A DNA stretch of 64,000 nt, taken from contig NZ_AAWS01000006.1 of NCBI RefSeq assembly GCF_000169175.1, positions 199,192 to 263,191 on the forward strand. The letters run 5' to 3'. Each line of letters opens with the position of its first letter. The stretch's first letter is position 1. The DNA is from Microscilla marina ATCC 23134 (lineage in GTDB: Bacteria > Bacteroidota > Bacteroidia > Cytophagales > Microscillaceae). A program made the position numbers and the translations under genes. Under the pieces are notes generated by a model. The model was not told where the DNA came from. It searched no databases and worked only from the letters and a program-made list of their open reading frames with translations. Of the stretch, positions 6,782 through 38,411 are shown in pieces.

Positions 6782-6885
6782 TGATAGAAAAGGGAAAGTT
6801 AAAAGAGGAATAAAAAAGCAAGTGAGTCACGAGGCTACGACTTGATGCCCTTGCTGCTTTCCAACCCTGGGGGGTTACAAGGAGC
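6782..6885. repeat. Copy A of a ~100-bp repeat (purine-rich tract plus GC-rich core GATGCCCTTGCTGCTTTCCAACCCTGGGGGGTTACAAGGAGC)
   Basis: Direct repeat of 7621-7720. The 42-nt core is about 90% identical to copy B. The preceding AAAGGGAAAG..AAAAGA..AAAAAAGCA tract is also shared. Confidence 0.7.
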
Positions 6886-6959
6886 CGTCGTACCCACATT
6901 GCACTGCAAAGGTAAAGCAAAATTTCAAATTTCAAAAATTTCAAATAAATATTTGATTA

Positions 6960-7620: not shown

Positions 7621-7720
7621 AGGAGAAAAAAAGGGAAAAGAAGAAAAAAGCATGACAGTATCGCACTGCTACAACCGGATGCCCTTGCTGTCTTCCGACC
7701 CTGGGGGAGTTACAAGGAGC
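7621..7720. repeat. Copy B of the ~100-bp repeat (core GATGCCCTTGCTGTCTTCCGACCCTGGGGGAGTTACAAGGAGC)
   Basis: Same orientation as copy A. It is flanked by the short direct repeat TCGCACTGC. Confidence 0.7.
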
Positions 7721-7882
7721 TAGTCGCACTGCCACGCGCCACAAAAGTAGCAGTTATTATTTAATTGTCAAAATTTCGAATAAAAAAGCTATATTTTGTA
7801 ACTTTACAGTATCAAAACTACAACTCAAGCAGAGTTTATGCGTTTTGATTTTAGGTTTTAAAAAAGAATTTCAAACACTATA

Positions 7883-8357: not shown

Positions 8358-9620
8358 CTACGATATTGCTGCTTGGTTGGTGCGTGTAATTGGTTGTTGG
8401 TGTATACTTTTAAACCAATGTGCTATTTTTATAAGCCATATAGCCGATACAATGCAAATAGTGGCACAACCTATTAAAAATGGAACAAACAGTGGAGTTT
8501 GATATACTAAAAACAGTAAAATTGATGAAGTAATTAATAAGCGAGAAAACTCTATAGGTATTACCCAGTTTTTGCGTTCAAACAATCCCCCCGGGGTTAG
8601 TATGGCAAAGAGTGTTAGACCTACTCCAATGCCTTTGAGTGTCCAATCCATCTTATCTATTTGAGACATAAAATAAGCCGAACCTGCCAGGGTAAGAACA
8701 TAATGAAATAGCACATACCAATTGACAATAGCAGGGGTTTGGGTGTTAAACTTTTGGTATTGATTGTGGTCTACTTCTGGGGCGTATTGCATGCCTCCCA
8801 TGCTTTCGGGGCGCCAGCCAGGTTTGTAAAACAACACTTTAAGTTTGTTTATAAAACCCGGAGTTTCTTTGAGTTGTTTGCCAATGACTTGAAAATGGGT
8901 AAAGTTTACCAAAATAGGATTCCAGGTATTTACTGGCGTAGTGATGCCATAAATGGGCTGTTCTTCTTCTTCCTGAAAAGTGCCAAACATTCTATCCCAG
9001 ATAATAAATGTACCTGCGTGGTTTTTATCTATATATTTTGGGTTACGTCCGTGGTGTACTCTGTGGTGGGAGGGAGTATTCATAAACCATTCTAAAAAGC
9101 CCATTTTTCCAATAGCCTCAGTATGAATCCAAAACTGATACAATAGGTTAAAGCCTGATACAATCACCACTGCGCTAGGGTCAAAGCCTAACAATGCCAG
9201 TGGCCAAAAGAAGAAAGAGGTAAAAAAGATTTGGAACCAACTCTGGCGTAAAGCCACTGATAAGTTGTAATCTTCGCTTTGATGATGTACCTGATGCCCG
9301 CTCCAGAATAAGTTGATTTCATGGTTCATTCGGTGTGCCCAGTAGTAGCAAAAATCCCAGGCAAAAAAGAGGATTATATAATTTAATACGGTGTTTTCAA
9401 CTTTAAAGAAAGCTAGGTTTGCATAAATAAGGGTGTAAATAGCTACAGTAATGAGTTGGAAAAATATTTTGACTGCTTGCTGTCCTACACCACAGCTAAT
9501 GTTAGTAATGGCATCGTTTAAACGATATCTTTTAGTTTTTTGGAATTGTTCTACAAGTAGCTCTAGGCCCATTAACCCAAAATACATGGGTATGGCAATT
9601 ACAACAGGGTCAAAATTCAT
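8358..9620 (-). CDS. Fatty-acid hydroxylase / sterol desaturase family membrane protein
   Basis: Histidine boxes HRMNH, HQVHHQ and HHRVHH lie within a polytopic membrane protein. Confidence 0.75.
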   Translation of the reverse strand: MNFDPVVIAIPMYFGLMGLELLVEQFQKTKRYRLNDAITNISCGVGQQAVKIFFQLITVAIYTLIYANLAFFKVENTVLNYIILFFAWDFCYYWAHRMNHEINLFWSGHQVHHQSEDYNLSVALRQSWFQIFFTSFFFWPLALLGFDPSAVVIVSGFNLLYQFWIHTEAIGKMGFLEWFMNTPSHHRVHHGRNPKYIDKNHAGTFIIWDRMFGTFQEEEEQPIYGITTPVNTWNPILVNFTHFQVIGKQLKETPGFINKLKVLFYKPGWRPESMGGMQYAPEVDHNQYQKFNTQTPAIVNWYVLFHYVLTLAGSAYFMSQIDKMDWTLKGIGVGLTLFAILTPGGLFERKNWVIPIEFSRLLITSSILLFLVYQTPLFVPFLIGCATICIVSAIWLIKIAHWFKSIHQQPITRTNQAAIS

Positions 9621-9763
9621 AAGTTAGTATAATTGGATTCGTGTATAGTACAAATTTACAGAAAATAGAAAGTGTATCAAATTTTCTGAGGACAATAACT
9701 TCCCTTGGTAAATTCTTTAAATTGTATAATTTAATGTAATTTGTCATGTTTGTTAAGTACAAA

Positions 9764-9813
9764 TGTGGATAAGTTAAAGTTATCCACATATCCACATGCC
9801 AACGTGTGGATAA
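9764..9813. promoter_or_regulatory. Cluster of four DnaA boxes (TGTGGATAA, TTATCCACA, aTATCCACA, TGTGGATAA)
   Basis: Three perfect and one single-mismatch match to the consensus TTATCCACA within 50 bp. An AT-rich tract of about 180 bp follows at 9841-10020. Confidence 0.6.
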
Positions 9814-10236
9814 CTTGTGAATAACTCATAGTCATTCTTTTTACCCCTTCGTTTATAGTAATTTTTACCATAATTATAACTTTGATACATTATTTTGTTT
9901 TGATTTTGTGTGTTTTTGTTTATTACTATTTTTTATCATACGGCACACCTCTTTTCTTAGTTGGTTTTTGCTTTTAAAAACAGTACTTAACATAATTTAT
10001 TTATATTTAATTAATACAAAATAAGAGGTGTATGGTAGTCATGATACGTATAGGAAAAATACAATGTTCTTTGTGGTTTTAAATAAAAATTTCTGTTGAT
10101 ATTATTGAGAGCCTGTTGTGTAAATCAAACATTCTCTCCTTTCTTTGAGTTTATCACCCAATAATTCTTGTGAAAATTATTAACTGAAAAGCGTAGCTTT
10201 TATATTTACTGCATAAAAAAAGACTCTAAATCTATT

Positions 10237-10692
10237 ATGTACAATACTGTTTTAATTATACACTCCTGGCTTCGTGTCATTATTTTAGTGCTTGCTGTAG
10301 TAGTGCTTTTCAAATCTTTGATGGGTTGGCTCAACAAAGGTAGTTATACCAAAGGCGATAATGCTTTATCAGCTTCTTTTGTGGGTTTTATCCACTTACA
10401 GGCTCTATTGGGATTCACTTTATACTTTTTCCTAAGCCCTATTACGGCAAGTGCAATGAAAAACTTTGGCGCAGCAATGAAAAACTCAGCAGTTCGTTAC
10501 TGGGCAGTTGAGCATATCTTAATTATGCTCATTGGCTTGGTAGTAGCTCAAATAGGTCGTTCGAAGGCTAAAAAATTGACTGACTCTACCGCAAAACATA
10601 AAACAAGCTTTATCTTTTTTACTATTGCTATAGTATTAATAGTAGGCGGTATTTTTGCCGGAGCAGCTTCAAGACCTTGGTTTCGTATGTAA
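10237..10692 (+). CDS. Hypothetical polytopic membrane protein
   Basis: 151 aa with about four hydrophobic helices. Confidence 0.5.
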   Translation: MYNTVLIIHSWLRVIILVLAVVVLFKSLMGWLNKGSYTKGDNALSASFVGFIHLQALLGFTLYFFLSPITASAMKNFGAAMKNSAVRYWAVEHILIMLIGLVVAQIGRSKAKKLTDSTAKHKTSFIFFTIAIVLIVGGIFAGAASRPWFRM

Positions 10693-14582: not shown

Positions 14583-17348
14583 TTAACTGTTATTGCTAAT
14601 TTCATTAAGCAAACGCTCAAGACTGTATTCGTCAGGAATGAGTACTTCACGCGCTTTACTCCCTTCAAATGGGCCTACAATTCCGGCTTGTTCTAATTGA
14701 TCAATCAAACGGCCTGCACGGTTATAGCCAAGTTTCAAACGGCGTTGCAGGAGCGAAGTACTCCCTTGTTGATGCATGACAATAATACGGGCTGCTTCGT
14801 CAAACAATTCATCACGATCGCCTACTGAACCGCCAGCACTGCCACCTCCCTTATTGTCTTCTCCATGAAACTCAGGCAATTGATAAGCTTCGGGGTAGCC
14901 CTGTTGATCACCAATAAAGTTACAAACACGTTCTACCTCTGGAGTATCTAAAAATGCCCCTTGCAGACGAATCATTTCTGCTCCCATAGAAAACAGCATA
15001 TCACCCATACCCACTAGTTGCTCAGCTCCTCCGGCGTCTAATATAGTTCTGGAGTCAATTTTAGAGGTAACTTTAAACGACAAACGAGCAGGGAAGTTTG
15101 CCTTGATCACCCCTGTAATTACGTTTACAGAAGGGCGTTGAGTAGCTACTACTAAGTGTATACCAATGGCACGTGCCAACTGAGCCAAACGAGCAATGGG
15201 TTGCTCTACTTCTTTTCCTGCGGTCATCATCAAATCAGCCAACTCATCTATTACCAACACAATGTAAGGCATAAACTTGTGCCCTTTTTTAGGGTTGAGT
15301 TTGCGTTGAGTAAACTTCTGGTTATACTCTTTAATATTTCGGCAAAGTGCATCTTTCAACAGGTTATAACGATTGTCCATTTCCAGACACAGCGAATTGA
15401 GGGTATGAATTACTTTTTGATTATCAGTAATAATGGCTTCCTCTGAGTCTGGAAGCGTTGCCAGAAAATGTTTCTCGATGGCTGTGAAAAGAGCCAGCTC
15501 TACCTTCTTAGGGTCAATCAATACAAATTTGAGCTCGGCAGGGTGTTTTTTGTAAATTAAAGTAGCAAGAAAAACATTCAATCCTACCGACTTACCTTGA
15601 CCAGTAGCACCAGCCATCAATACGTGAGGCATCTTGGCAAGGTCAGCCAAAAACACCTTATTTTCAATGGTTTTACCCAATACAATTGGTAAACTTGCCT
15701 TGGTGTTTTTGAAGGCTTCATCTTCCATAATAGAACGCATAGTTACCACTTCACGCCTTTTATTGGGTACTTCAATACCAATCGTTCCTTTGCCAGGAAT
15801 AGGCGCAATGATACGTATACCCAATGCAGCAAGACTTAGCGCAATGTCATCTTCGAGGTTTTTAATTTTAGAAATACGAACTCCCGCTTCTGGTATAATT
15901 TCATACAGAGTTACTGTAGGACCAATGGTGGCTTTAATCTGAGAAATGCCAATGCCATAGTTGCTTAAAGTTTCTACAATACGATCTTTATTGGCTTCCA
16001 GCTCTTCATTTGACACCTGTCTTTTCATTTCAGGTAGTTCATTGAGCAAGTCAGCCGTAGGAAACTTATAAGTACTAAGGTCTAGAGTAGGGTCATAAGC
16101 TTCCAGCTTTTTTTCTTCTTTTGTTTCCCGGTTATGCTCTGCTTCCTCTTTAAAGTTAATGTCTTTTTGGATTGCCTTTTCAAAGAATGGGTTTACTTTT
16201 TCAGTCACCTTATCTATAGAAGGAGGGGGTGTTTGAGGGGTTACTGGTGCCGATTCATCAGTAAGCTCAAGGTCAAGTTTGCCCGTTTTTCTTTTAGATA
16301 GTTTCTCTGTACTTCGGCGAGTACGCTTAGGTGATACCTCTTTAGGCATTTCCAGAGGTGTTTCACTTGTAGGGTTTTTGAACGGAGGCATATCAGGAAC
16401 TACCTCTTCATTATCTTCTGATAAATCTTCGGTGTCTACCTTAGGCCTGCGGGTAGTTCGTAGTTTGCTTGCCCGTTCTTTTTTAATAGCTTCTGTTGGA
16501 TCTTCTGTGATTTTGGTAACCCTTTCTATAGGTTTGGTTTTATCCAGCGTGGGGTCGTCATCGGTTACTTCCAGAATAATGCCCTCGTCTGAAAATAAAT
16601 CTTTGTGGTCTTCATCGTTGCCTGCTTCTGCGGTTTTGCCCGTTTTTTTGTTCTTGTCTACTCGTTCATATCGCACACTTTTGGCTGCATCGGAAATTGT
16701 TTTTACAATGCCATTATTGGTTGACACATACTTTTTATAATCGTCATAAGCGAAGGTTTTTACTACAAACCAGGCTAATACCGCAAAAGTAATGACTACA
16801 GAAAAGAATGATTTGAACAGTGGAATTAAAAAAGTATGGGCAATTTCGAAGCCCCAAGCACCACTTACAAAAGCGCTTCGGTCGGCAAGCGCCACCAAAG
16901 TACTAATCCAAATAAGAAAAAATATAGATACACGCATTAAGCGGGAAAGCCTAATAAGCGTAACATTGTTAAGAAAACGCCAGCCCAGTACAAAAGAGAT
17001 CACAACTAATATATAGGCAGCAATACCAAAACCCTTGAATACAAAAGTATGGGCAAGAATCGCCCCGGTAAGCCCTAGCCAGTTTTGTACTTCAGCGCCA
17101 CTTTGAGTAAGTTTATTATTCCAAAATGCTTCTACCAGGCTTTGGTCAGCTTTGCCTGTTCCCCCTAAAAAATAAGAGGTAAATGCGCCAAACATTGCCA
17201 TAGCAAGCAATAGAAAAAACAGACCTAGGGTAAACCTTACATTTTTGTTTTTGAGTAGTAAGCTTATGATCTGCATAAACTCATTTTGACTCAATCGCCC
17301 CGAATCGTTTTTTCTTTTATATGTATTTTCTCGGACAGTCTTTGCCAT
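14583..17348 (-). CDS. ftsK: DNA translocase FtsK/SpoIIIE
   Basis: 921 aa. It has an N-terminal membrane domain, a Pro/Glu/Lys-rich linker, the motor motifs GATGQGKSVGLN and LVVIDELADL, and a C-terminal winged-helix gamma domain. Confidence 0.9.
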   Translation of the reverse strand: MAKTVRENTYKRKNDSGRLSQNEFMQIISLLLKNKNVRFTLGLFFLLLAMAMFGAFTSYFLGGTGKADQSLVEAFWNNKLTQSGAEVQNWLGLTGAILAHTFVFKGFGIAAYILVVISFVLGWRFLNNVTLIRLSRLMRVSIFFLIWISTLVALADRSAFVSGAWGFEIAHTFLIPLFKSFFSVVITFAVLAWFVVKTFAYDDYKKYVSTNNGIVKTISDAAKSVRYERVDKNKKTGKTAEAGNDEDHKDLFSDEGIILEVTDDDPTLDKTKPIERVTKITEDPTEAIKKERASKLRTTRRPKVDTEDLSEDNEEVVPDMPPFKNPTSETPLEMPKEVSPKRTRRSTEKLSKRKTGKLDLELTDESAPVTPQTPPPSIDKVTEKVNPFFEKAIQKDINFKEEAEHNRETKEEKKLEAYDPTLDLSTYKFPTADLLNELPEMKRQVSNEELEANKDRIVETLSNYGIGISQIKATIGPTVTLYEIIPEAGVRISKIKNLEDDIALSLAALGIRIIAPIPGKGTIGIEVPNKRREVVTMRSIMEDEAFKNTKASLPIVLGKTIENKVFLADLAKMPHVLMAGATGQGKSVGLNVFLATLIYKKHPAELKFVLIDPKKVELALFTAIEKHFLATLPDSEEAIITDNQKVIHTLNSLCLEMDNRYNLLKDALCRNIKEYNQKFTQRKLNPKKGHKFMPYIVLVIDELADLMMTAGKEVEQPIARLAQLARAIGIHLVVATQRPSVNVITGVIKANFPARLSFKVTSKIDSRTILDAGGAEQLVGMGDMLFSMGAEMIRLQGAFLDTPEVERVCNFIGDQQGYPEAYQLPEFHGEDNKGGGSAGGSVGDRDELFDEAARIIVMHQQGSTSLLQRRLKLGYNRAGRLIDQLEQAGIVGPFEGSKAREVLIPDEYSLERLLNEISNNS

Positions 17349-18533: not shown

Positions 18534-19460
18534 TTAATTATTGAGCAAAAGCTTTTCTAGTTGATTAAGGTCGGCTTTGATTTTTGACAGAGCAAGCCGA
18601 TCACGATTTTTGATGGCTACTTCCAACGCTTTTTTTATACTGGCATGGTAGTGTTCTATTTGAGCATTTATTTGTTCGTTGGTATACTGAGGCGTAGGTA
18701 CATCTTGGCTTTGATAAGCTTGCTCTTCTTTACCTTCTTCTATTTCGGTAGCTCTTTTATAGATATCTTCTACACTGAGTATAGGTACCTCGTCAGAGTC
18801 TTTGGCTACTTCGCCCAGCTTTTGTACATGGCTCTTATTTACTTTTACTTTGCCCTTCAGTATTTCTTGTTTCAGTTCAGGGTTTGACTTTCCAATAATG
18901 TCCATCCCTTCAGCAAACTTAGCGTCACGACGAATCGTTTTTTCATCTACATTGTATTCTTTAGCAATACGCTTTGCGGTAGACTCTTTGGGTTGGTCAC
19001 TGTTGCTTAGATCAGTGCGTTGCCCTTGCGATTTCTCAGAGTTATAACGCGACCCACGTAAAAAAGCTTGTTGTTCTTTACTAAGGTTCCGTCGTCCCAG
19101 CTGGTTATTGATCATCCAGTTGCGCGCTTCAAACCTGGTTTTGAATTGTACCAGATGAATCTTAAAGTCTACATTATAAGTAGTACATATTTTATGACGG
19201 TTGTGTCCATCAATAAGTACATACTTTCCAGCAAGTTCGTCATCAGCATCATGGGGTACTTTCCATACCACCAAAGGTTCACGGCACCCTTCCTCTGCGA
19301 TGTTTTGGGCAAGTTGGGCAAATTCATCTTCCTTGAGTGGAGGAATCAAATCTCTGAATTCATCCTCAATGTGAATCTTTGCTTTTATCTGCGACTCGCT
19401 TTCGCTTTTTTGTTTCACGGCTCCACTTAATAGGTTTGCCAGTTTATCTCTTTTAGCCAT
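18534..19460 (-). CDS. ParB-like N-terminal domain protein with HTH (non-canonical, DGHNRH variant)
   Basis: The ParB/Srx N-domain block YVLIDGHNRHKI replaces the chromosomal GERRxRA box. It also has the HTH TAKRIAKEYNVDEKTIRR, and it overlaps parA by 8 bp. Confidence 0.65.
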   Translation of the reverse strand: MAKRDKLANLLSGAVKQKSESESQIKAKIHIEDEFRDLIPPLKEDEFAQLAQNIAEEGCREPLVVWKVPHDADDELAGKYVLIDGHNRHKICTTYNVDFKIHLVQFKTRFEARNWMINNQLGRRNLSKEQQAFLRGSRYNSEKSQGQRTDLSNSDQPKESTAKRIAKEYNVDEKTIRRDAKFAEGMDIIGKSNPELKQEILKGKVKVNKSHVQKLGEVAKDSDEVPILSVEDIYKRATEIEEGKEEQAYQSQDVPTPQYTNEQINAQIEHYHASIKKALEVAIKNRDRLALSKIKADLNQLEKLLLNN

Positions 19461-20196
19461 TAATGACCTCCTTTGAAAGGTTTAAATAATCTTCAGCAGC
19501 AGCGCAGGTTTTATCGTAAGAAAAAATATCTTGTCGATGAGTAGACGACTCTACCACTGCTACGTTTTGCCTGATAACGGTTTGAAAAGCTGCATCGGGA
19601 TATTCGGTTTGAACTTTCTCTACAATGGTTCTACTTACCACTGTACGGTTTACTTGAGTAAGCAGTAGCCCCATAAGTCCCAGTGCTGGATTTAGGTTTT
19701 GGCGTAGCTCCTCTATCAATTCTATAATAGTATCAAGACCTTTGATGGCAAGGTATTGCGATTGAACCACGATAAGTACTTCGTTGGCGGCTATCATTGC
19801 ATTGGCAGTGAGAATACCCAAAGAAGGCGGGCAGTCGATTAGAATAAAATCATAATCTTTTGCTATAGTTGCCAGTGCGTTTCTTAGTTTAAAATACCCA
19901 TTTACCTCTGTAATGAGTTTTACTTCTGCCCCTGACAAATCAAGGTCTGCCGGAATGATGTTAAGTCCTGTAGCTATTTTTTGCACAGGCAACGCTTCAC
20001 CTTCACACAATGCGTGGTAAATATTTTTTGGAGGCTCTTCTATACCTACCGACTGCGACAGGTTTGCCTGAGGGTCAATGTCTACTATAAGTACTTTCTT
20101 TTTATTCATCGAAAGTGCCTTACCCAAGTTAAGGGTAGTAGTAGTTTTGCCTACGCCTCCTTTATGATTTACTACGGCAATTATTCGTGGTTTCAT
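19453..20196 (-). CDS. parA: ParA/MinD-family ATPase
   Basis: Deviant Walker A KGGVGKTTT, 247 aa. Confidence 0.8.
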   Translation of the reverse strand: MKPRIIAVVNHKGGVGKTTTTLNLGKALSMNKKKVLIVDIDPQANLSQSVGIEEPPKNIYHALCEGEALPVQKIATGLNIIPADLDLSGAEVKLITEVNGYFKLRNALATIAKDYDFILIDCPPSLGILTANAMIAANEVLIVVQSQYLAIKGLDTIIELIEELRQNLNPALGLMGLLLTQVNRTVVSRTIVEKVQTEYPDAAFQTVIRQNVAVVESSTHRQDIFSYDKTCAAAEDYLNLSKEVING

Positions 20197-37600: not shown

Positions 37601-38113
37601 ATGAAGATTTTTAGAAAGGTAAAAGAGGTGTATAAAAGACATCAAAAGGCTATGCATAGTATGTCTGACGATGACATACTGACCATTATCAGAAACAATA
37701 ATGGGCGCATAACCGCCACTGGCTTAGCACGTCAAACAGTACTTACTTATATACAAGCTTCGCTCAAGTTACAAAGCCTTTATGACAAAGGCTATTTAAA
37801 GATTACTTACAGTAATAGTGGGATGACGCAAATTATGGTGTTAAAAGCACAAACTTTGCCTACTATAGCATCATCATCTAAATTAACTGATGCAAAAGTA
37901 CTGCAGGTTGTTATACAAGCAGGTGGTAAGATCACCCCAGCAGCTTTGTGTGTGGCTCTTGAGTGTAGCATTGATGAAGCGCGCAAAAAACTTGATGAAC
38001 TTCAAATGAAAGATGTTTTTGATCTTGAAGTAACTGATAAAGGCGCTATTTTATATGTGCTCAATGATATAGATTGTTTTCAAGATTCAAAAGTCAAAAA
38101 TTTACCTAAATAA
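37601..38113 (+). CDS. Paralog 2 of the duplicated-repeat protein
   Basis: Starts 2 bp after paralog 1. It has the same two-repeat architecture (..ITATGLARQT..ASLKL.SLYDKGY / ..ITPAALCVAL..IDEARKKLDEL). Confidence 0.5.
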   Translation: MKIFRKVKEVYKRHQKAMHSMSDDDILTIIRNNNGRITATGLARQTVLTYIQASLKLQSLYDKGYLKITYSNSGMTQIMVLKAQTLPTIASSSKLTDAKVLQVVIQAGGKITPAALCVALECSIDEARKKLDELQMKDVFDLEVTDKGAILYVLNDIDCFQDSKVKNLPK

Positions 38114-38411
38114 TATTATTATGTTAAGTTAAATGTTTTTAAAACTCTCCATCTTACGTCATTGTAAGTAAGTGTGTAAAAATAAAACTTTAAAAAAGTA
38201 AGTACATTATTTGATTGTAGTGGCAGAATAGATGACTTTATAAGGCTACCAACAAGATGTGTTTTAGAAGCTGTTTACAGCAACCTCAACCTTTGGACAT
38301 TTTGGGAGAAAAGCCTTATATTGTTTGGTTGTAATTTTGTAGCAACAAAAATAGTGGAGGTTTTATCATTCTATTATTACCTTTTGCTTACCATTAATTT
38401 GAGCATCTACC

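Follow-up and report, generated by a model that had tools for sequence, protein, structure and literature searches.

A Conserved DnaA-Box Cluster in Microscilla marina as a Candidate Core of the Chromosomal Replication Origin

A compact cluster of DnaA boxes (cluster A) was identified in the spacer between two divergent genes within a 64-kb stretch of the Microscilla marina genome (the whole stretch that was analyzed, hereafter the window). The interpretation of cluster A as a DnaA-binding locus is strongly supported, as judged from the match of its boxes to the consensus, the improbable density at which they occur and their invariance across six lineages. The best single reading, which is held at about even confidence, is that cluster A constitutes the DnaA-assembly core of the chromosomal oriC in M. 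marina and its close relatives. This reading is favored because of the box density, the conservation, the independence of the cluster from both neighboring genes and their promoters, an AT-rich flank that is better than that of a second array nearby (cluster B), and the fact that oriC and dnaA are not linked in the phylum.

Results

Architecture of Cluster A

Matches to the E. coli-type 9-mer TTATCCACA, which was used as the DnaA-box consensus, were mapped across the window. Cluster A contains five boxes in alternating orientation within 61 bp (9764-9824), three of which are perfect (table 1). A preliminary description of the same DNA had listed four boxes at 9764-9813, including three perfect 9-mers; a re-scan of the sequence reproduced these coordinates exactly and added a fifth box (R5, 9816-9824) that had been overlooked. 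The R1 and R2 boxes pair into a perfect palindrome with a 10-bp stem. R2 and R3 form a tandem pair in an 8-bp register because one base is shared by both boxes, and R4 is convergent with this pair (25 bp from the start of R2 to the start of R4). The spacer that carries the cluster is a long divergent intergenic region, as had been described, with a length of 616 bp (9621-10236) instead of the 617 bp given previously.

Table 1. Position and orientation of sequence features within and around the cluster A spacer (window coordinates).
Feature	Position	Strand	Description
FA_hydroxylase gene	8358-9620	-	Pfam FA_hydroxylase, E = 2.7e-30
Bacteroidetes-type promoter, FA-hydroxylase gene	9651..9681	-	TTTG-N19-TAAATTTG (general form TTTG-N19-TAnnTTTG)
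Left AT-rich flank	9700..9763	.	20-28% GC; between FA-hydroxylase promoter and R1; candidate unwinding side
DnaA box R1	9764..9772	-	Perfect; + strand reads TGTGGATAA; invariant in all seven sequences of alignment A2
DnaA box R2	9780..9788	+	Perfect, TTATCCACA; extended flank AAAGTTATCCACA; invariant in A2
DnaA box R3	9788..9796	+	One mismatch, ATATCCACA (aTATCCACA); invariant in A2
DnaA box R4	9805..9813	-	Perfect; + strand reads TGTGGATAA; invariant in A2
DnaA box R5	9816..9824	-	One mismatch; + strand reads TGTGAATAA (TGTGaATAA); tandem with R4, 11-bp register
Right AT-rich tract	9841..10032	.	~21% GC; candidate DNA-unwinding element
TAACTTTG -7-like element	9877-9884		53 bp downstream of R5; no -33 element
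Second most conserved spacer block, A[C/A]TTAACATAA	9984..9995	+	A2 alignment and repeat search
Putative -7 region TATATTTAC, 151-aa gene promoter	10199..10211	+	Putative, from A2 and repeat D1
151-aa multi-pass membrane protein gene	10237-10692	+	No family model matched
FtsK gene	14583-17348		Present in the window
ParA-like ATPase gene	19453-20196		Generic ParA/MinD superfamily member

Statistical Weight of the Cluster

The entire 64-kb window contains only three perfect boxes and all of them are located inside one 50-bp stretch of cluster A. When up to one mismatch was allowed, 19 boxes were observed across the whole window compared with 20.4 in shuffled sequences; the signal therefore lies in the clustering of the boxes and not in their number. 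Within the 64 kb, no other cluster of this kind occurs. The window was simulated 300 times with a first-order Markov model; the densest 61 bp of a simulated sequence usually contained one or two boxes, three boxes were found once and four were never found, compared with the five boxes that were observed. A survey of other Bacteroidota loci (~1.4 Mb) revealed no comparable cluster, with a best score of 5 against scores of 10-14 for cluster A and its orthologues. One three-box mini-cluster in locus L019 was dismissed as a chance occurrence because it is located inside a protease gene. According to the rules of Ori-Finder 2022, an intergenic region with at least three perfect boxes receives the top DnaA-box score, and cluster A reaches this score. 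The spacer also contains the three or more boxes (≤1 mismatch) within an intergenic region that are expected of an oriC.

Conservation within the Microscilla Clade

The 151-aa protein is 100% identical to a protein of M. marina ATCC 23134 (Cytophagales, Microscillaceae) encoded on a 295,532-bp contig, and the nearest locus in a GTDB genome comes from an uncultured Microscilla (98%). Alignment A2 consists of seven spacers, from M. marina and from the loci L087, L088, L085, L003 (marine bacterium AO1-C), L082, and L089, the last two of which represent UBA11690-like Microscillaceae. Compared with M. marina, the six relatives display 59-72% identity in the 151-aa protein and ~75% identity in the FA hydroxylase. 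The R1-R4 boxes are unchanged in all seven sequences, as are the distances between them and a few adjacent bases (CAAaTGTGGATAAsTnAAAGTTATCCACATATCCACAT...TGTGGATAA), and the remaining spacer is mostly barely alignable. The R1-R4 boxes are certainly under purifying selection, within a selected element that is predicted to bind DnaA.

The R5 box is kept in five out of seven sequences (mostly as TGTTGATAA in the relatives) and has disappeared from L088 and L085. Five of the seven sequences contain a further perfect box, R6 (TGTGGATAA), ~85 bp to the right, within the AT-rich tract, at a site that corresponds to positions ~9902-9918 of the window; M. marina and L085 do not carry this box. The left AT-rich flank contains a conserved GTTAAGTAC sequence at 9751-9760, just left of R1, and the second most conserved block of the spacer (table 1) is an inverted copy of it, 222 bp apart.

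The arrangement of R2 and R3, spacer and R4 is also found elsewhere, in 11 metagenome contigs that differ widely in GC content, and always within a box cluster. In 3 of these 11 contigs, from other taxa, the module lies directly beside dnaA and is thus also used by classical dnaA-linked origin or promoter regions.

AT-Rich Flanks and DnaA-Trios

The preliminary description had highlighted a tract of very low GC to the right of the boxes as a plausible unwinding element. The tract exists (21.7% GC at 9841-10020; least stable 60-mer at 9965-10024 with 12% GC) and is not exceptional: a dozen intergenic stretches of the window (37% GC) are equally unstable, with the tract approximately fourth in rank. 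It represents the ordinary intergenic DNA of this window, so it adds little weight to the oriC reading. The tract is compatible with a function as unwinding element and is not evidence for one. A search for 13-mer-like AT-rich repeats within the spacer returned weak two-copy families only and no repeated 13-mer-like motif.

The geometry deduced from the E. coli sequence, in which the unwound trio-bearing DNA is located 5' of the strand that reads TGTGGATAA, agrees with the E. coli entry in the BUS table (Pelliciari et al. 2021). According to this orientation rule, R1 is directed into the left flank, R4, R5 and R6 are directed leftward, and R2 and R3 are directed rightward into R4. The test for DnaA-trios required a correctly oriented box to be accompanied, within 16 nt, by at least three NAN trios that are GAT-like and conserved. 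A run was found only at R1, where it has the minimal length of three trios (AAA CAT GAA) with a background probability of 0.48 beside random AT-rich positions, and it is not conserved in L003 and L082. The run is at background level and the DnaA-trio test is therefore uninformative.

Flanking Genes and Promoters

Promoters were identified with the consensus of Bacteroidetes sigma-A promoters. Only one good promoter of this type is present in the spacer, upstream of the FA-hydroxylase gene, and it is represented in alignment A2 by the conserved TCAAATTTTC and ACAAA..TA blocks. A scan for sigma-70-type promoters produced matches at chance level, and the "terminator" it suggested corresponds to the R1/R2 palindrome. 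The box nearest to the FA-hydroxylase promoter is R1, located ~82-85 bp upstream of the -33 element, which places the boxes at about -120 to -180 relative to the start of the gene; the likely -7 element of the 151-aa gene, near 10201, is ~375 bp away from R5. With the nearest box at a distance of 82 bp, cluster A is therefore not an operator that overlaps the FA-hydroxylase promoter. A DnaA operator would be expected to overlap or abut the promoter that it regulates, and the boxes do neither at the promoters of the flanking genes.

A DnaA operator would further be expected to travel with its gene across taxa, and outside the Microscilla clade the boxes were found with neither gene. No cluster was present within 10 kb of more than 70 FA-hydroxylase orthologues (≤57% identity) in other Microscillaceae genera and other families, and the cluster was absent from four loci of other families that encode homologues of the 151-aa protein (L084, L086, L102, and L103). 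Missing at the outside relatives of both genes, cluster A is tied to neither of them. Approximately 350 bp of the spacer is surplus to the two promoters; this part is AT-rich and has no conserved ORF. A search of the spacer against Rfam produced zero matches, both at the gathering threshold and at E ≤ 1. Judged from these comparisons, cluster A looks like a free-standing DnaA-binding element rather than a simple operator. The fallback interpretation of the preliminary description, which was an operator of a flanking gene, is thus judged less likely, given the distant promoters and the lack of linkage between boxes and genes elsewhere.

Neighboring Genes and dnaA

The genes next to cluster A are unrelated to the indicator genes that commonly accompany oriC (dnaA, dnaN, rpmH, gidA, and others). 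The flanking loci are syntenic across the relatives and consist of housekeeping genes, with no mobile-element genes among them. The reported absence of dnaA from the window was confirmed: a tblastn search with E. coli DnaA found no dnaA in the window or the compared loci, and the same search matched only three unrelated metagenome contigs. This absence carries no information, since in the Bacteroidetes oriC is commonly located at a distance from dnaA, as described in a Prevotella genome paper (PMC4755523). The indicator-gene table of Ori-Finder contains no Bacteroidetes entry. The DoriC coordinates given by Pelliciari et al. (2021) place oriC at 4.06 Mb in Cytophaga hutchinsonii and at 2.81 Mb in Marivirga tractuosa, with the E. 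coli box consensus, and DoriC 5.0 lists the origin of C. hutchinsonii as confirmed by experiments, citing the oriC plasmids of Xu et al. (2012). The DoriC BUS sequence of Marivirga was absent from the compared loci, and no mention of an M. marina replication origin was found in the literature.

A nearby FtsK gene and a ParA/ParB-like pair had previously been cited as context for an origin. The FtsK and ParA-like genes are indeed present (table 1), whereas the identification of a ParB did not hold: no ParB model recognized the 308-aa partner of the ParA-like ATPase, which lacks a Pfam ParB domain and reaches 19.8 bits with TIGR00180 against a cut-off of 58. No parS site with up to two mismatches was found in the 64-kb window, and allowing up to three mismatches added one match at chance level. 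The window thus shows neither the ParBc/HTH_ParB domains nor the parS site of a canonical chromosomal ParABS system, and the argument for an origin from these neighboring genes fails. FtsK acts at the terminus and not at origins, and is not known to be linked to origins.

Strand Asymmetry and Gene Orientation

Raw GC skew, AT skew, and purine and keto disparity were calculated over the window and none of them has an extremum at cluster A. The raw cumulative GC skew reaches its minimum at 20.1 kb, and the curves track gene orientation. A change-point likelihood based on the skew at four-fold sites was flat when evaluated at every gene boundary, with all models within ~1 log unit and no power to separate them. 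Four-fold sites of minus-strand genes were pooled from M. marina, L003, and L004, resulting in a coding-strand GC skew of -0.306±0.031 on the left and -0.251±0.030 on the right; the sign of this difference is opposite to the prediction for an origin and the difference is not significant. In a whole-gene regression with a transcription term, the fit of a single replichore was slightly superior to that of a switch at 9.8 kb (residual sum of squares 93.8 vs. 99.4 for GC and 235 vs. 241 for AT). The single-replichore fit describes a plus strand that is G- and T-rich and thereby leading-like (r_GC +0.023, r_AT -0.040). The skew test has little power, with only 9.6 kb of sequence on the left side of the cluster and a replication signal of at most two to three standard errors.

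The genes on both sides of cluster A are encoded on the minus strand, as are 69% of the genes in the window. The minus-strand genes on the right imply that ten genes over 11 kb would be transcribed head-on to a rightward fork leaving cluster A. Gene orientation, with its minus-strand majority, and composition, with a leading-like plus strand, contradict each other. The absence of an asymmetry switch counts against the origin reading, only mildly.

A Second DnaA-Box Array

A further array (cluster B) was seen on L101, a contig that reaches 4.3 kb beyond position 1 of the window. It is located ~2.4-2.9 kb to the left of position 1, at a distance of 12.4 kb from cluster A, in a 529-bp divergent spacer between coaX (encoding type III pantothenate kinase) and a GWxTD-domain gene, and it is conserved between M. 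marina and AO1-C. In M. marina, cluster B contains two perfect boxes, each at the end of a ~70-bp direct repeat (repeats 171 bp apart), and only three boxes in total when up to one mismatch is allowed. The AO1-C array (L104) consists of three units, spaced by 161 and 154 bp, with three perfect and seven one-mismatch boxes in ~420 bp. On the AO1-C contig MLAY01000010.1 (882,516 bp), cluster A occupies ~96.16-96.31 kb and cluster B ~83.9-84.3 kb. The unit is composed of a T[A/C]TCGACA-N7-TGTCGA palindrome, ~8 nt, AAAAGTTATCCACA, N15, and TGTG[T/C]ATAACTTT (TGTGyATAA). The TCGACA-N7-TGTCGA palindrome was found neither in the window nor in any of the other loci.

The convergent box pair of cluster B is spaced by 24 bp from start to start, compared with 25 bp for R2-R4 in cluster A, and the flank AAAGTTATCCACA of R2 is common to two perfect unit-ending boxes of cluster B. 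The arrays differ in AT content: cluster B has 31-33% GC and a least stable 60-mer of 22% GC, compared with 26% GC for the cluster A spacer and 12-17% GC for its 60-mer. Cluster B may be either a competing origin or an accessory locus for DnaA. The presence of two conserved arrays this close to each other makes it more likely that the neighborhood is origin-proximal, and it also means that at least one of the two arrays is not the unwinding site.

Discussion

The proposal of an oriC in the preliminary description can be upheld in part: the density and invariance of the boxes bear out a DnaA-box locus, and an oriC is plausible and no more, given that no switch in skew or gene orientation was detected and that the AT-rich tract is ordinary. 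If cluster A is the DnaA-assembly core of oriC, DnaA would bind to the four invariant high-affinity boxes R1-R4 and to the weaker R5 box, with R6 added in most relatives. The tandem pairs R2/R3 and R4/R5 would face each other and R1 would face outward. The DnaA oligomer nucleated on these boxes might then melt the AT-rich DNA on one side of the cluster (9700-9763 or 9841-10032), followed by loading of the replicative helicase, presumably with DciA as in other Bacteroidetes.

Cluster A resembles the Bacteroidetes origins predicted in DoriC, including that of C. hutchinsonii, in that several E. coli-type 9-mers lie close together in a long, AT-rich-flanked intergenic region without linkage to dnaA. 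It differs from them in that cluster A is a candidate origin only, in that no switch in skew or gene orientation is visible in the window, and in that the flanking genes encode an FA hydroxylase and a small membrane protein instead of known indicator genes. The tandem pairs (R4/R5 in an 11-bp register and R2/R3 in an 8-bp register) are reminiscent of the basal unwinding system known from Bacillus subtilis and numerous further bacteria (Richardson 2016/2019; Pelliciari 2021). Unlike in that system, there is no convincing trio run at a correctly oriented box, and the tandem pairs of cluster A point at each other and not toward an AT-rich flank.

The lack of a detectable switch in asymmetry or gene orientation at cluster A would also be explained if the cluster were a non-origin array involved in titration or a nucleotide-state change of DnaA, with oriC at cluster B or at another site in the genome, an explanation that is possible if somewhat doubtful. 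After correction for transcription, the window reads as one replichore with a leading plus strand, which would place the origin to the left, beyond the window and on the side of cluster B, and cluster B itself is conserved, with two to three repeat units and, in AO1-C, ten boxes (≤1 mismatch). That skew signal, however, amounts to two to three standard errors only and compares different sets of genes, and an origin at cluster B would put 36 of the 52 window genes in head-on orientation. Cluster B is also less AT-rich than cluster A and its M. marina version has only three boxes (≤1 mismatch). The DBCs of B. subtilis and the datA and DARS1/2 loci of E. coli are similar to cluster A in being conserved intergenic clusters of consensus boxes with opposed boxes at short spacing, and in that several clusters can lie a few kb from one another (here A and B). 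Close opposed boxes are also a mark of DARS-type sites, and several accessory clusters are located near the oriC of B. subtilis. Against this stands that no datA/DARS-like system is known in the Bacteroidota and that non-origin DnaA-box clusters of the DBC, datA, or DARS type are not known to have been described in this phylum.

A regulatory function of cluster A in transcription, as a DnaA-dependent operator of one of the two flanking genes or of an unannotated transcript from the AT-rich tract, is unlikely. The cluster does lie in a divergent promoter region and DnaA acts as a transcription factor in other bacteria, but the boxes are distant from both promoters (about -120 to -180 relative to the start of the FA-hydroxylase gene, and ~375 bp away from the promoter of the 151-aa gene) and both flanking genes lack boxes in other families. 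The genes have no known functional tie to replication, and the five to six consensus boxes far exceed the needs of known DnaA operators. An internal promoter might be suggested by the perfect -7 motif just to the right of the cluster (TAACTTTG, 9877-9884), and in five relatives the R6 box sits a few bases downstream of the equivalent TAATTTTC; such a promoter is speculative, with no -33 element to accompany the motif. It is highly improbable that some protein other than DnaA recognizes the repeats, or that they are a product of chance or the remnant of a mobile element. The perfect 10-bp stem of the R1/R2 palindrome could suit a dimeric regulator, but each copy conforms to the 9-bp consensus for DnaA, and the copies occur in either orientation and with several different spacings. 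A chance origin is excluded by the simulations, and the syntenic housekeeping neighbors, with no mobile-element genes, argue against a remnant.

The DnaA-assembly core of oriC remains the preferred reading of cluster A. A tentative and rather doubtful proposal that includes both arrays is a two-part DnaA system, in which clusters A and B share a convergent box-pair module and one of them would be the origin and the other a DnaA-regulatory locus (datA/DARS/DBC-like) or a remote second half of the origin. Bipartite origins, such as incAB/incC in B. subtilis and oriC1/oriC2 in Helicobacter pylori, likewise consist of two separate DnaA-box arrays, one of which has the better AT-rich flank. The known examples are split by a single dnaA gene (~1-1.5 kb), whereas clusters A and B are 12.4 kb and ~12 genes apart with no dnaA between them.

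Replication origins of the Bacteroidota are almost all computational predictions and are not marked by dnaA, and each well-supported candidate aids genome annotation, replichore analysis and the building of oriC shuttle plasmids. Such plasmids opened the genetics of C. hutchinsonii. For M. marina, which is represented by a draft genome only and has no described origin, the paired conserved arrays provide two short testable fragments. The pair of clusters A and B raises the possibility that DnaA-regulatory DNA loci exist outside the Proteobacteria and Firmicutes and, if true, the two-part system would be the first DnaA-regulatory locus or the first widely split origin described in the Bacteroidota.

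DnaA-Box Arrays outside the Main Cluster

A second conserved DnaA-box array was found outside the window, in the divergent coaX/GWxTD spacer approximately 2.4–2.9 kb to the left of position 1, and it is present in both M. marina and the marine bacterium AO1-C (table below). The array consists of repeat units of ~70 bp with a spacing of 154–171 bp, each of which contains a TCGACA-N7-TGTCGA palindrome and a perfect DnaA box (AAAAGTTATCCACA) followed, 15 nt beyond the perfect box, by an inverted near-consensus box (TGTGyATAA). The double-box plus inverted-box module of the main cluster (R2R3-spacer-R4) was identified in three metagenome contigs, where it is flanked on both sides by series of short ORFs that share one orientation, in an arrangement that is phage- or plasmid-like; dnaA is absent from all three contigs.

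Coordinates of features within and beyond the window
Feature	Sequence	Position	Strand	Remark
Second array, M. marina	L101	13440-13682		2 repeat units
Second array, AO1-C	L104	13376-13800		3 repeat units; MLAY01000010.1, ~83.9-84.3 kb
Box module, metagenome contig	L096	6722-6773
Box module, metagenome contig	L097	3799-3850
Box module, metagenome contig	L100	4566-4617
SRP-RNA-like sequence	window	6816-6906	-
SRP RNA	window	7646-7744
Short ORF	window	9874-9993	-	L001 9638-9757
ATPase gene and downstream gene	window	18534-20196	-
Second 12-mer copy	window	38118-38129	-

Other Features of the Window

One gene caller predicted an ORF of 39 aa within the AT-rich tract; this ORF is probably a false call since the region displays no protein-level conservation in the relatives. 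The 12-mer ACTTAACATAAT, which forms the conserved block of the spacer outside the DnaA boxes, has a perfect second copy in another AT-rich intergenic stretch, with similarity extending past the 12-mer (AAAAACA..ACTTAACATAAT..TTATTTA, context 38100-38150). This copy is flanked by two convergent gene ends and is therefore not an obvious promoter.

A divergent second SRP-RNA-like sequence matches the Bacteroidales_small_SRP model with 38 bits (E = 3.6e-5), below the gathering score of 55.2 bits. The bona fide SRP RNA (64 bits) is located ~830 bp away, and the divergent sequence may be a decayed duplicate.

The ParA/MinD-family ATPase gene (247 aa) overlaps the downstream 308-aa gene by 8 nt. The pair is kept in three Microscilla-clade relatives (L082, L085, and L089) and the 308-aa partner fails all ParB models against which it was tested; the two genes therefore form a ParA-like system in which the partner is non-canonical.
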